From IMG/VR virus record IMGVR_UViG_3300047476_000577, positions 40,247 through 104,246 of that record: a DNA stretch of 64,000 bases; one strand, given 5' to 3'. This document shows positions 47,271-62,543 of this stretch, one piece after another; position 1 is the stretch's first letter, and every line of letters starts with the position of its first letter. The notes under the pieces were generated by a model, which made no database searches, was not told the DNA's origin, and saw only the letters and a list, made by a program, of their open reading frames with translations. This DNA comes from a virus. Both the position numbers and the translations under genes were made by a program.

Positions 47271-48659
47271 TTAAACCGCGTAGCGGTCTTTCATAATTGT
47301 TTCTAGCATTACTGCCTCTGGGGTCAGAGTCTTAGCACCGAGGATGCTAGTCATAATGCTAGGGCTGAAACCACTAACAAGAGCAGTGCCTTGCTTGTCG
47401 AAACTCACAGGCTTTGTGCCGTTGTCGTTTAGGTTCCAGAACACAACGTTCGGAACAGTGTAACCTGCAGATTCGTACTTGCGTACAATCATTTGGTATG
47501 CGCTGTCGTCGTGTGCAACACACTGGTTAAAGTTCATATCACTGAGGATAAGAACAGTCTGCGGTAGTTCAGCTTGTGGCAGTTTGTGAGCTGTAGCAAC
47601 TTCTAGAATACGGTTGAAAACCGCATTTAAGTCAGTGCTCATACCCCATTCACTGCGGCTAAGCTGGTCTAGCTTTTGTGCTAGGTTGCCCTTAAGGACT
47701 TGAATCTTAGGCTTGCTACTGAAAGTAACGAAAGCATCCTTGAAAGGACCTTTGTTCTTATCAGCAAGGTACAGGCCTAGACTTAGACTTACGTCCATAC
47801 AAGTCAGGTTAGGGTTACCACCTGCAGGGCAGCTCATAGAGCCGCTTACGTCTACAACTGGTAGGATACTTGCGTCACCTACATAGTTTGGTAGAGCGTC
47901 CCATTGTGCGTTAGCAACTTTTGCATCGCCACCAAAACGTAGAGTCTTGATAACGTCATATGGGTATACTGCGCTAGCGTTAATCTTAGCAGTACCGGCA
48001 GTTAGCGCGGCCTTATAAGCGTTGAACGCATCAGCAGCATTCTTACCGAATGCCTTGTTGTAACGGCTCATTGCTAGGCTAGGAACGTGTTCGAAAACAA
48101 TGTTATCCCAATCCTTAGCACACATTTGAGTCTCGACAACCTTAGTTAGATTGACAAGAGTCTTACGGTATTGCTTAGGAGTTAGGCCTAGGAATGCACG
48201 TAGTTGTTCTGCAACTACACCCTTACGAGGCATCCACTTTGCACACAGACCGTTACCGGCATCTAGGCCAGCTTTGATTTGTGTGAAGGCTGCTTTTTGC
48301 AGAGCAGCATCAGTAAACACTAGGAGGTCATCCCAGCGGCCTAGTTCTGCAACACGAGGAATTAGTCGCATTGCGGCATCTGCGTGACGCTTTTCTAGGT
48401 GTCGAAGGACACTGCGAAAAATTTCACGTTCGCCTGCACCTTGTCGTGCATCACGGGCCCATAGGGCGATACGCAGTGCTACATCAGAGTCTTGCTGGTA
48501 AGCAGACTCAAAGTTAGCAGTAATATCCTTACCACGGCTTGCACCAATAGAGAAGAATAAATCTACTGCTTTGTTTAGGGTAGAGGCCTGCGCCTTCATA
48601 CCATTAGCACCACGTGCTACTTCTACGGTTGCCTCTGCGGCTTGTACAAAAGTTGTCAT
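47271..48659 (-). CDS. DUF2828 protein (Ro60/TROVE-like helical domain + vWA); start revised to the ATG at 48659
   Basis: RDARQGAGER, GRWDDL, AKWMPR, VETQMC, VPSLAM, MIDAS DVSGSM, SDMNF, VFWNL, VSGFSP. Confidence 0.85.
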   Translation of the reverse strand: MTTFVQAAEATVEVARGANGMKAQASTLNKAVDLFFSIGASRGKDITANFESAYQQDSDVALRIALWARDARQGAGEREIFRSVLRHLEKRHADAAMRLIPRVAELGRWDDLLVFTDAALQKAAFTQIKAGLDAGNGLCAKWMPRKGVVAEQLRAFLGLTPKQYRKTLVNLTKVVETQMCAKDWDNIVFEHVPSLAMSRYNKAFGKNAADAFNAYKAALTAGTAKINASAVYPYDVIKTLRFGGDAKVANAQWDALPNYVGDASILPVVDVSGSMSCPAGGNPNLTCMDVSLSLGLYLADKNKGPFKDAFVTFSSKPKIQVLKGNLAQKLDQLSRSEWGMSTDLNAVFNRILEVATAHKLPQAELPQTVLILSDMNFNQCVAHDDSAYQMIVRKYESAGYTVPNVVFWNLNDNGTKPVSFDKQGTALVSGFSPSIMTSILGAKTLTPEAVMLETIMKDRYAV

Positions 48660-48674
48660 TGTGTATCTCTCTTT

Positions 48675-48730
48675 CTGAATCGTGGACATTATGTCCGGTT
48701 AATTAAAGTTAGTTGCTGTATCGATTCTAA
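48675..48730 (-). ncRNA. CAGCA-handle RNA 1 (5' UTR of the DUF2828 gene)
   Basis: GAATCG-ATACAGCAA ... CGATTC-AG, directly upstream of the RBS. Confidence 0.7.
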
Positions 48731-48987
48731 CTGGATGATCGGAACGGTAGTTTAGTATTCTGCTTGACCCCATCCCCTGTATATCGGTTCAGTTCCTCAA
48801 GCATAGCGACGATTCACGTTGCCTAGTTTGTGTTGTGTCTGTACAAACATCATATATGTCTTTCCATAAGTCGTCAGTTCCATTAGCGTCTAGTTGCCTA
48901 GAACAGTGCAAGCACTGTACCTTCCGGGTCACTGTCTACTGCATTAGTTGGTTCTTTAGTAGTTTATTGTTGCTGAACTCATCCAAA
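48731..48987 (-). ncRNA. CAGCA-handle RNA 2 (about 255 nt, structured cargo)
   Basis: GGATGA-GTTCAGCAA ... TCATCC-AG. Confidence 0.7.
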
Positions 48988-49062
48988 TACTTGTTTAAGT
49001 AAGTATCTATTATATGACAAGTTGACTTTATTGTCAACTAGATTTGACTATACGAATATGTT

Positions 49063-49138
49063 TGGTGGAGGTAGACGGGATCGAACCGACGACCTTTAGC
49101 TTGCAAAGCTACTGCTCTCCCAGCTGAGCTATACCCCC
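49063..49138 (-). tRNA. tRNA-Ala(UGC)
   Basis: Cloverleaf, G3-U70, CCA. Confidence 0.95.
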
Positions 49139-49202
49139 ACAATTTTGTCGTATATTGTATTTATACTTGATTGCTTACAACCTGCATAAAACAATATAAA
49201 AA

Positions 49203-49279
49203 TGGTCCGGGTGGTGGGATTCGAACTCACGACCCTCTGCTCCCAAAGCAGATGCGCTAACCAGACTGCGCTACACCCG
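49203..49279 (-). tRNA. tRNA-Pro(UGG)
   Basis: Cloverleaf, CCA. Confidence 0.95.
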
Positions 49280-49293
49280 GATGAAATATTTAC

Positions 49294-49428
49294 AACAGGA
49301 TCAACTTTTTATGGCTGTTGCTCTACCGACTGAGCTACCTAGTGCTGCATTTTATGCTTGACACTAGGGCAGGACTCGAACCTGCGACCGACTGCTTGGA
49401 TTAAGTAATATGCTGAACTGATCCTAAA
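49294..49428 (-). ncRNA. CAGCA-handle RNA 3: Y-RNA(YrlA)-like permuted tRNA
   Basis: Handle GGATCA/TGATCC enclosing T-arm, loop-closed acceptor CCTAGTG/CACTAGG, then D-arm. Confidence 0.8.
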
Positions 49429-49430
49429 TT

Positions 49431-49507
49431 TGGTTGCAGAGGGTGGACTCGAACCACCGACCTCAAGGTTATGAGCCTTGCCAGATACCAACTTCTAACA
49501 CTCTGCG
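49431..49507 (-). tRNA. tRNA-Met(CAU), initiator-like
   Basis: C1xA72 mismatch; anticodon stem CAAGG/CCTTG lacks the full three G-C pairs. Confidence 0.85.
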
Positions 49508-49716
49508 CCAACTGTTTATTTACAATGGTTTCTGTTTGTCTAGATTAGAGACTAAACGTTCGTCATTGTAAACATTTGCTACATTAGGGTCTGCTTTAGA
49601 CTCTTGTGTAGTTTTATTCTTTCTAAAAATGTTATCGAAGTTAGAGTCAAACACTTCCTTCGGAACACTAAATGGTCTAGGTGAACTACCTTTACCGCCG
49701 TCACTCATATTAACCT

Positions 49717-61294: not shown

Positions 61295-61371
61295 TGGCTG
61301 GCCAGGCAGGGATCGAACCCGCGACATCTTGATTAACAGTCAAGCGCAACTACCAACTGTGCTACTGGCCA
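61295..61371 (-). tRNA. tRNA-Asn(GUU)
   Basis: Cloverleaf, CCA. Confidence 0.92.
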
Positions 61372-61507
61372 ATAAACTCATATAGAAAAACTCTCTGCGG
61401 CGCTTGAATCCACGGTAGCCCTGCTCTTCCTGGCCGGTCCTTGCCGTGGTCGACTTTGGCAAGTATTTCGGTGTTCCAGTGTAGCTACTACAAAGAGTTT
61501 TTCTATA

Positions 61508-61584
61508 TGGTGGGACTGCTCGGACTCGAACCGAGACTCTTACCGGTTAAAAGCCGGATGTTTTAGCCATTAAACTACAATCCC
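61508..61584 (-). tRNA. tRNA-Lys(UUU)
   Basis: Anticodon arm CCGG-CTTTTAA-CCGG, CCA. Confidence 0.92.
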
Positions 61585-61588
61585 ATAT

Positions 61589-61663
61589 TGGTCCCTCCGG
61601 TGAGATTCGAACTCACACTTGTCGGATTAAGAGTCCGCTATGCAGCCTTAACATCTCGAAGGG
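61589..61663 (-). tRNA. tRNA-Lys(CUU)
   Basis: Loop CTCTTAA, CCA. Confidence 0.85.
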
Positions 61664-62138
61664 TTAGTGTATTAAATTAGATTTAACGTGCCACCCTGAG
61701 ACCAATACGGGATCTAGAGTGACACTAACGTTTAGCACGTTTCATAGTGTCATTTCCTTTAAATTGAAATTGTTTTGCGACCGTACTTTCTTGCACAGTC
61801 TATACTAACTCTCATCGCAGCACTGCAACAAAACTTTTCGCCGCGTTTAAATTTCCACTCGTTTACTTTAAACGGTTTAAGTACACGATCGCCATTCCAC
61901 GATTGTCTACAGGTACTAATATAGCCTAATCTCTCAAGCTCATTACGTAACTTCGTAAACTCAGGATGGTCCTCCGAATGTACACTTGTGCATCTATCTT
62001 CGCCTTTTAAGACTTTAATAAATTGCTCGTGTGTTAATTCGTTTTTAGGGATATGGTCATACATACCCCATTCTTTTCTAATAGTAACACTGCTAATGAA
62101 TTGATCATCTATATAAAATTGCATTACTACTCCATTGT

Positions 62139-62215
62139 TGGCAGAGGCGTCCGGATTCGAACCGAACCTAACTGAGTCAAAGTCAGTTGTGCTAACCAGG
62201 CTACACCACGCCCCA
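62139..62215 (-). tRNA. tRNA-Gln(UUG)
   Basis: Cloverleaf, CCA. Confidence 0.9.
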
Positions 62216-62223
62216 ACATATTT

Positions 62224-62299
62224 TGGCACCCCCTGATGGACTCGAACCACCGAATGTCGGAATCAAAATCCGATGCCTTACCAACTTGGCGAAGAGGGT
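62224..62299 (-). tRNA. tRNA-Gln(UUG)
   Basis: Cloverleaf, CCA. Confidence 0.92.
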
Positions 62300-62394
62300 A
62301 TAAATTTCGATGCTGGTCTTGGGACTTGTACCCCAGAACTCCATTTCCCTCGACAACACGTCAGGGCGAGTCTGTTTCCTTCTTGCAAGAAATT

Positions 62395-62471
62395 TGGTGC
62401 CGCCACGTGGGCTCGAACCACGGACCCCCGCCTTATCAAGACGGTGCTCTAACCAACTGAGCTATGGAGGC
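62395..62471 (-). tRNA. tRNA-Ile(GAU)
   Basis: Cloverleaf, CCA. Confidence 0.92.
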
Positions 62472-62476
62472 AATAT

Positions 62477-62543
62477 AACAGGATGCTTTTTTACGGGTTT
62501 GATTAAAAGTCAAATGTATAAAGTTTGCTGAACGCATCCTAAA
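62477..62543 (-). ncRNA. CAGCA-handle RNA 9 with Lys-UUU anticodon stem-loop
   Basis: GGATGC/GCATCC handle; cargo TTTGA-CTTTTAA-TCAAA. Confidence 0.8.

Follow-up and report, generated by a model that had tools for sequence, protein, structure and literature searches.

Background

Ro60/Y-RNA particles, in which a ring protein is combined with a modular RNA that serves in gating or tethering, are known from animals and a few phages as well as from about 5% of bacteria. The YrlA RNAs adjoin TROVE Ro60 genes in 254 bacteria and 22 phages and carry the motif GNCGAAN0-1G (PMC4201824). The Ro60 protein of Thermus phage phiLo binds two Y-like RNAs encoded upstream of its gene, which are characterised by a 5'-3' stem and a CGAA bulge, and recruits the host PNPase (PMC12135203). 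ROT/TROVE proteins are furthermore listed in surveys of jumbo phages (PMC7824862), and the SEA-PHAGES label for members of phage cluster L is 'Ro-like RNA binding protein', overexpression of LeBron gp53 being mildly toxic (PMC13148394). The Class I RNAs of dictyostelids likewise possess a covarying stem, with a conserved initial G, an AAG start and a CUGU end (PMC7919456). Here, we analysed a 64,000-nucleotide (nt) stretch of viral DNA, called the window below (positions 40,247 to 104,246 of IMG/VR record IMGVR_UViG_3300047476_000577). It contains nine minus-strand elements (E1 to E9), each combining a common module, the handle, with a variable insert, the cargo, as well as a gene of the DUF2828 family.

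The window was taken from a virus contig of 104 kb that is 29% complete (CheckV), and no close relative of this contig was found among deposited phages. A minus-strand array of 42 tRNA genes spans 47-64 kb of the window, with the DUF2828 gene at its downstream end. We consider it quite probable that the nine elements are small non-coding RNA genes whose products are partners of the DUF2828 protein, and that the two form a divergent particle of the Ro60/Y-RNA type, with a docking handle and exchangeable, mostly tRNA-derived cargos. This reading is directly based on the handle motif, its covariation, the strict genomic coupling and the predicted fold of the protein, from which we infer binding, processing, feedback and a role as decoy or tether.

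Handle motif and its covarying helix

Eight copies of the sequence GGWTNNNTNCAGCA were detected in the window, all of them on the minus strand between 48.9 and 62.6 kb. Shuffled sequences contained 0.23 copies on average, and none of 100 shuffles reached eight. On the minus strand, the nine sites share the consensus (U)UUUA-GGAUNN-NUN-CAGCA(A), followed by the cargo, an A-rich stretch, NNAUCC and UGUU. The handle consists of a stem of 7 base pairs (bp) of free sequence, an invariant CAGCA with a nearly invariant A after it, and an A-rich 3' strand. At the position equivalent to GNCGAAN0-1G of YrlA, all elements hold N-T-N-CAGCAA. A perfect 6-bp distal partner was present in seven elements (E1, E4, E5, E6, E7, E8 and E9). 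The first-pass annotation of the window had described nine elements with a closing stem, a linker, CAGCA and an A-rich 3' side, placing them by their 3' ends, ~4 nt past the stem. This description holds for eight of them and fails for E2, which has no distal 3' strand. The range of cargo lengths given at that time agrees with the 31-232 nt measured in the window, and a relaxed scan of the window yielded no convincing tenth element.

For the test of the helix, relatives were drawn from 80 IMG/VR loci with 53-62% identical proteins and from phages S13 and RSP15. A search of 1.3 Mb of DUF2828 loci for the simple motif gave 197 copies in the orientation of the gene and two in the reverse orientation, and their stems comprised 34 different sequences. 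A non-circular pairing test was then anchored on fixed bases, i.e. GG....NNNCAGCA on the 5' side and the first downstream CCTG on the 3' side. Of 270 cases, 171 showed Watson-Crick pairing at each of the four variable positions, whereas permuted partners did so in 13 cases on average and in 24 at most. In an alignment of 85 sequences, comprising short elements of all lineages, seven of the eight pairs changed on both sides, and 96.5% of the pairing cells were paired (73% in shuffles). The covariation score amounted to 0.591 versus 0.127 in shuffles, none of 500 shuffles reaching the observed value, and slid registers collapsed in the same test. The flanking A-U pair, which had never been selected on, was paired in every sequence (85 of 85) and showed 14 double changes. 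The covarying closing helix postulated from the window alone was thus borne out both by the non-circular test and by the covariation score. Another register of the helix, derived from the Rfam alignment of YrlA (CAGCAU with AUCCUG), was tried and rejected, since the variable positions covary only in the register proposed originally. In Rfam, the handle is covered by no family and gave sub-threshold matches only (YrlA on the tRNA-like cargos, and one Class I match); it represents a structured, covarying motif without an Rfam family.

Coupling of handles to the DUF2828 gene

The distribution of handles was examined with a strict scanner, which demanded CAGCAA, a 3-nt linker, a stem of six Watson-Crick pairs extended by a seventh pair, and A-rich sequence. 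In 87 DUF2828 loci, 223 handles were found, 215 on the gene strand and 8 on the opposite strand. Eighty of these loci were handle-positive, including 36 of the 40 loci with fewer than four tRNAs. As controls, 80 tRNA-bearing viral loci were drawn at random via a D-arm word, 79 of them without the gene. These 79 loci contained 386 tRNAs and as few as 10 handles, six of which were located on two contigs encoding DUF2828 elsewhere. A covariance model of the handle (R1) produced eight matches in 693 kb of controls, all within the three contigs in which DUF2828 is encoded. Bas27 (MZ501108), a complete T5-like phage added as a negative control, contained neither the DUF2828 gene nor a handle. The co-occurrence predicted by the first-pass annotation was therefore found, the handles following DUF2828 genes and not tRNA arrays as such. 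As the element is absent from tRNA arrays that have no DUF2828 gene, the processing of tRNAs does not depend on it.

We also sampled five distant lineages, represented by Vibrio phage KVP40, the Felix O1-like phage HY02, mycobacteriophage Whirlwind, Listeria phage LP-048 and Campylobacter phage PC14. Each of these phages harboured two to four handles at most ~400 nt from the gene, on the same strand. Their stems are lineage-specific (AGACCNN, GGACNN, GGAANC and others), while CAGCAA is unchanged across all five. The proteins of KVP40, HY02, Bas63, Whirlwind, LP-048 and PC14 show 33-43% identity to the window protein. As for Bas63 (Escherichia phage JohannRWettstein), its gene bas63_0130 has 95.5% DNA identity to the HY02 gene, the protein of which is 39.8% identical to that of the window; its product, gp130, is encoded directly upstream of a tRNA stretch, and R1 finds three handles between the tRNAs, Bas63 thereby showing the proximity of ~400 nt and the common strand as well. 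In bacterial assemblies, R1 matches were located beside a DUF2828 gene in at least 10 of 17 loci. The co-occurrence thus extends over phages of Gram-negative, Gram-positive, actinobacterial and Campylobacter hosts as well as bacterial assemblies. Among the neighbourhoods of six unrelated phage lineages, with hosts spanning several phyla, DUF2828 was the sole annotated gene in common. Because handles adjoin the gene of a Ro60-shaped protein across very different phages and some bacteria, the handle RNAs are probably its partners.

The DUF2828 protein

The DUF2828 + DUF7788 gene (47271..48659, minus strand) encodes HEAT repeats and a vWA domain with the MIDAS motif DVSGSM, which is invariant among homologues (D-V-S-G-S-M). 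The product matched the Pfam profiles PF11443 (99.9 bits, 1.9e-28; cut-off 29) and PF25043 (175.6 bits, 1.1e-51; cut-off 27.1), and over its full length phrog_850 of PHROG, 'RNA-binding protein' (4.7e-153). The longest open reading frame reaches 48689. The true start is probably the ATG at 48659, giving a product of 462 amino acids (aa), because homologues are 461-464 aa long and a purine-rich Shine-Dalgarno sequence is present. The longest open reading frame (472 aa) starts inside E9, and automatic annotation may in this way overextend the gene across an RNA element. The protein family is present in 710 deposited phage records (INPHARED alone), and the DUF2828 protein clusters listed in the atlas are viral and bacterial only.

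A structure model was built with AlphaFold2 from 21 homologues (mean predicted confidence, pLDDT, 78.9). The top Foldseek matches of this predicted model were all Ro60 proteins, that of Thermus phage phiLo having E 2.6e-9. VIA-align gave the model Z 19.2 with phiLo Ro60 (9kop; 388 residues), 16.7 with human Ro60 and 13.8 with Deinococcus Rsr. Its ten best matches in the PDB were all Ro60 proteins, covering residues ~29-462, followed by vWA-only matches at Z ~10, while phmmer with the protein sequence found nothing in the PDB. The protein is accordingly predicted to adopt a full-length Ro60 fold, i.e. a ring of HEAT-like helices closed by a vWA domain, so that the Ro60-like protein recognised in the first-pass annotation has, in the model, a Ro60 fold over its whole length.

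The nine elements and their cargos

Two elements of the window, E1 and E4, have short cargos. E1 (62481..62539, minus strand) has the handle GGATGC-GTT-CAGCAA...AAAAAA-GCATCC and a 39-nt cargo, in which a 5-bp stem with the loop CUUUUAA is set on a 3-bp base; it scores 78 bits (E 2e-16) on R1. E4 (56704..56756, minus strand; 59.1 bits on R1) has the handle GGATGC-GTT-CAGCAA...GCATCC and a 33-nt cargo with a 5-bp stem and the loop CUGUUAA. The two loops are exactly those of tRNA-Lys(UUU) and tRNA-Asn(GUU), and the stems are unlike those of the phage's own tRNAs. As judged from sequence, the E1 cargo is a look-alike of the Lys-UUU anticodon arm and the E4 cargo one of the Asn-GUU anticodon arm.

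The cargos of E5 and E7 are permuted tRNA bodies. E5 (56572..56687, minus strand; handle GGTTCG-TTT-CAGCAA...AAAAATG-CGAACC) carries a T arm GGGTTCGAATCCC, an acceptor stem and a D arm, and position 3 of its helix displays a compensatory change from A-U to U-A. E7 (49298..49424, minus strand; handle GGATCA-GTT-CAGCA...AAAAAGT-TGATCC) carries a T arm, a closed acceptor stem and a D arm in the layout of YrlA. It scores 30.9 bits on R1 and 40.3 bits over the full length of the Rfam model of YrlA (RF02553), below the gathering score of 69; the other elements of the window gave no match to this model. In E3 (58755..58854, minus strand), the handle (A)GGATG-ATTA-CAGCAA...CATCC(T), with pairing AGGATG/CATCCT, encloses a cargo of ~80 nt that includes a T-arm-like hairpin (GGGTTCGAGTCCC).

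The remaining cargos of the common topology are of other kinds. E6 (54980..55054, minus strand; handle GGATAG-GTT-CAGCAA...CTATCC; 41.3 bits, E 1.4e-7 on R1) contains 55 nt with a hairpin bearing an 8-nt loop. The 232-nt cargo of E8 (48733..48984, minus strand; handle GGATGA-GTT-CAGCAA...TCATCC) folds into several hairpins and matches no Rfam family, and the match of E8 to R1 is partial only. E9 (48677..48727, minus strand; handle GAATCG-ATA-CAGCAA...CGATTC) has a 31-nt cargo with a small hairpin and a weak match to R1 (15.8 bits, E 0.2).

E2 (59792..59905, minus strand) represents a second topology, an RNA of tRNA shape that has a genuine acceptor stem as well as CCA. Its parts are arranged in the order acceptor-5'/D-arm, A-rich stretch, TGATCC, TGTTAA, GGATAC, GTG-CAGCAA, T-arm and acceptor-3'-CCA, so that the handle is a hairpin (4 bp and two mismatches) in the place of the anticodon arm. 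It scores 41.9 bits on the Rfam tRNA model, with a large insertion. Two RNAs of the same layout, with a perfect 6-bp hairpin handle, were found in Cronobacter phage S13 (NC_028773; 13850-13971 and 13980-14093 of locus L001). In the public record, this pair is annotated as 'tRNA-Ser' (121 nt) and 'tRNA-OTHER' (113 nt), the handle hairpin reading GCAAAC-loop-GTTTGT-ATT-CAGCA, and the tRNA label is probably wrong for both. A generic scan for E2-like hairpin handles was uninformative (75 on the gene strand versus 82 on the opposite strand), and the hairpin topology is claimed solely for E2 and the two S13 RNAs. Adjoining E2 is a gene for an HNH endonuclease (59384-59740, minus strand), the start of which is ~50 nt past the CCA end of E2. 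As the handle helix of E2 is imperfect, the endonuclease gene may have been inserted by homing, either beside a handle RNA gene or within one.

The cargos of 204 unique elements range from 9 to 271 nt in length, most commonly 30-50 nt. A hairpin with a 5-bp stem and a 7-nt loop is contained in 59 of the 94 short cargos, compared with 11 after shuffling. The signature of an anticodon loop, Y-U-NNN-R-N on a 5-bp stem, was present in 39 of the 94 and in one of 94 shuffled cargos, the 'anticodons' being diverse. A T-loop was carried by 37 of the 204 elements. The order typical of YrlA (T arm, closed acceptor stem, and D arm inside the terminal stem) was observed in E5 and E7 and in these 37 elements, but not in the majority with short cargos. 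In two further loci (L055 and L085), scores on the YrlA model were 40.9 and 38.3 bits, both below the gathering score.

Handles in the gene leader

The two handle copies closest to the DUF2828 gene, E8 and E9, are located directly upstream of it, as stated in the first-pass annotation. E9 lies in the 5' leader of the gene and ends 17 nt before the ATG, which makes it a candidate autoregulatory operator. A handle ended no more than 150 nt upstream of the DUF2828 start in 75 of 83 loci, and in 57 of them it ended 3-33 nt before the ATG, against the Shine-Dalgarno sequence. In KVP40, the 3' strand of the handle even covers the start codon ATG. About 25 nt upstream of E8, a site resembling a sigma-70 promoter was noticed (49009..49037, minus strand; TTGACA, 17-nt spacer, TATAAT; 12 of 12 consensus matches), which may drive an E8-E9-DUF2828 transcription unit. 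In the region as a whole, promoter-like sites were not enriched. Taken together, the leader handles and the promoter-like site fit co-transcription and suggest feedback on translation.

Proposed model and alternative explanations

If the handle RNAs are partners of the DUF2828 protein, their transcription would take place as part of the tRNA operon or, for E8 and E9, together with the DUF2828 gene itself, and the tRNA-processing machinery would cut them out. The ends of each RNA would then form a docking module, in which the 7-bp stem, free in sequence, is joined on the 5' side by a 3-nt linker and single-stranded CAGCAA and on the 3' side by the A-rich sequence. The ring protein would grip this module as Ro60 grips the stem and bulge of Y RNA. 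The ring could thus display various cargos, namely look-alikes of anticodon arms, tRNA bodies devoid of such an arm, a tRNA in which the handle takes its place, or other folds. These might serve as tethers or decoys for proteins directed at tRNA, for example anticodon nucleases of the host, repair/modification enzymes and exoribonucleases. With a leader handle set against the Shine-Dalgarno sequence, the protein might also feed back on its own translation.

Several points weigh against such a particle. The same genomic coupling would be expected from RNAs that act solely as cis-regulators of the gene, or from RNAs that serve a co-travelling factor. CAGCAA is unlike the known Ro60-binding motifs GGUCCGA, GNCGAAN0-1G and CGAA. 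There was no match to TROVE (Pfam PF05731) at E <= 0.01, and the family profile reached phiLo Ro60 marginally (E 0.04, over 38 residues of the vWA domain). As sequence methods barely detect the relationship to Ro60, the family is a remote Ro60-fold branch and not a TROVE member by sequence, and an RNA-binding surface cannot be assumed by analogy alone. In a preprint, gp130 of Bas63 is shown to overcome the ppl defence when produced on its own, from plasmid or T7, without the RNAs of its phage (PMC11482910), so that at least the activity against ppl may not need handle RNAs. As to the cargos, those of E6, E8 and E9 are not tRNA-like. From the first-pass proposal of tRNA-mimic cargos, permuted bodies and anticodon-arm look-alikes are therefore retained, while these three elements are not covered by it.

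Alternatively, the handle might mainly be an operator or processing signal in cis, with the leader copy regulating translation or stability of the DUF2828 mRNA and the others serving as punctuation of the tRNA polycistron or as titrating sites, in which case the elements would not be stable partner RNAs that display cargo. The handle positions 3-33 nt before the ATG in most loci and the start codon covered in KVP40 are in line with an operator, and the location of elements between tRNAs, in a single direction of transcription, with a processing signal. However, an operator needs one copy, whereas the loci contain 2-13, and the cargos are structured and non-random, as evidenced by the frequent anticodon-loop signature (39/94 vs 1/94) and by full T-arm/acceptor/D-arm bodies. 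A processing signal would in turn be expected in tRNA arrays without DUF2828, which lack the handle. We regard this explanation as unlikely. A different binder, be it a host RNA chaperone or RNase or some other phage protein, with DUF2828 merely in the same operon, would agree with the sufficiency of gp130 against ppl (PMC11482910) and with the departure of CAGCAA from known Ro60 sites. It would also agree with the Class I RNAs, which have a similar handle and are reported to be bound by the RRM protein Rnp1A (PMC7919456). Nevertheless, DUF2828 is the only annotated gene shared by the six unrelated lineages, a host factor would have to be conserved across phyla, and the predicted DUF2828 fold is that of a dedicated binder of stem-plus-bulge RNA; on balance, a different binder appears quite improbable.

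The elements might also be functionless, whether as tRNA pseudogenes in decay or as selfish mini-insertions that recombination or homing endonucleases have spread within tRNA arrays. Their cargos are indeed built of tRNA pieces, and E2, with its imperfect helix, abuts the HNH gene. Yet CAGCAA is invariant, the stem retains its pairing by compensatory changes even where the proteins are as little as 33% identical, the orientation is strictly biased (215 vs 8) and the position by one gene is fixed. Such features would not be retained by neutral debris, and we give such an origin hardly any credence.

Provided that the handle RNAs do act with the DUF2828 protein, a widespread family, annotated as anything from 'hypothetical' to 'RNA-binding protein', would gain defined RNA partners. 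What would be new is an uncatalogued RNA, a different recognition motif and new kinds of cargo. Handle RNAs would account for many stretches of phage tRNA clusters that lack annotation and for the odd 'long tRNAs' in them. Since one member of the family defeats a bacterial defence, the anticodon-arm cargos suggest a route by which phages could handle attack on tRNA. The RNAs are short, modular and present in model phages (Felix O1, Bas63, KVP40, A511-like phages and cluster L). In its broadest form, the proposal would make CAGCAA the tag of the whole DUF2828 family, in cells and phages, with the Class I RNAs as a eukaryotic counterpart whose ring-shaped partner would be a DUF2828 protein, and phages would use the tag to mount tRNA fragments, chiefly anticodon arms with loops copied from the host type, as decoys or tethers against tRNA-targeting or other defences such as ppl. 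This extension is speculative, and we consider it rather doubtful.

Other features of the tRNA array

Several further features were noticed in the tRNA array, all on the minus strand unless stated otherwise. At 57973-58044, the tRNA called by ARAGORN has an aberrant anticodon loop ('tg'); its score on the Rfam tRNA model is 33.8 bits. Two tRNA-Sec-like sites, for which ARAGORN calls nothing, are located at 63074-63161 (47.5 bits on Rfam tRNA-Sec, gathering score 47) and 63504-63591 (28.4 bits). Among the tRNAs, there are genes for a small RF-1-domain protein (52456-52830; ArfB/ICT1-like peptidyl-tRNA hydrolase domain), a YqeY-like protein (58205-58636) and an Asp/Asn hydroxylase-like protein (49717-50394). 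A radical SAM enzyme is encoded on the opposite (plus) strand within the array (53758-54891). A search of the phage's own contig for RtcB, Rnl2 and Rnl1 detected none of them; as this contig is 29% complete and the Rnl1 control matched nowhere, nothing follows from their absence.

Comparison with known systems

The first-pass annotation had regarded an RNA partner of DUF2828 as new. This stands insofar as no paper describing CAGCAA handle RNAs was found in the literature, but there is nearer prior art than had been assumed (PMC4201824, PMC12135203, PMC11482910). In the last of these, the PhageMaP preprint, it is guessed that some annotated tRNAs near gp130 may be Y RNAs, and the handle RNAs are not identified (PMC11482910). 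Bas63 gp130 is a true member of the family, and the counteraction of ppl is the only phenotype for it.

The dictyostelid Class I RNAs (RF01414) resemble the phage elements in their length of ~60 nt, the 6-bp terminal stem, CAGCAA by the 5' strand, a variable middle and A-rich sequence before the 3' strand. Their Rfam consensus GaUcuC-CUUA-CAGCAA...AAAAA...GagAuC-UG can be compared with UUUUA-GGAUNN-GUU-CAGCAA...A-rich-NNAUCC-UGUU of the phage, and their ends AAG...CUGU with the phage consensus UAGG...CCUGUU. E4 aligns to RF01414 from end to end (28.3 bits, below the gathering score of 41.5), and no match at E <= 5 was obtained in ten other handle-rich loci. In contrast to the phage RNAs, Class I RNAs are eukaryotic, have their own promoter element (DUSE) ~60 nt upstream and are reported to be unique to Dictyostelia. 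The resemblance, seen in sequence, is one of architecture and thus a lead, not a demonstration of common descent. If it reflected a shared partner, it would offer a mechanism for an RNA class that has been an orphan for 20 years.

Ro60 of phage phiLo (PDB 9KOP, 9L5Y), the best structural match, is also a ring protein of ~460 aa with partner RNAs (Yrl1 and Yrl2) encoded just upstream. It differs by having 16-17% identity to the window protein, with no significant sequence match, and by its RNAs, which are two in number, carry the motif CGAA and are accompanied neither by a tRNA array nor by anticodon-arm cargos.

The YrlA/YrlB RNAs with Rsr are likewise encoded beside a Ro60-fold gene, on the same strand and several per locus. 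In Listeria phage LP-048 (KJ094033; 6852-8063 of locus L086), the DUF2828 gene is followed, 1.3 kb further downstream and in the same orientation, by a gene for an RtcB-like RNA ligase, which recalls the bacterial rsr-yrlBA-rtcBA operon. YrlA shares with the handle RNAs a closing 5'-3' stem, a conserved loop motif on the 5' side, an A-rich loop on the 3' side and a module that is a permuted tRNA body (PMC4201824). On the other hand, the handle RNAs contain CAGCAA instead of GNCGAAN0-1G, and those matching RF02553 (E7 and the ones from L055 and L085) score 38-41 bits, under its gathering score. The partner gene is DUF2828 and not Pfam TROVE, with up to nine or more copies of the element spread through a tRNA array. 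Lastly, most handle cargos are hairpins of 30-50 nt, many of them anticodon-arm look-alikes, of a kind not described for Y RNAs.

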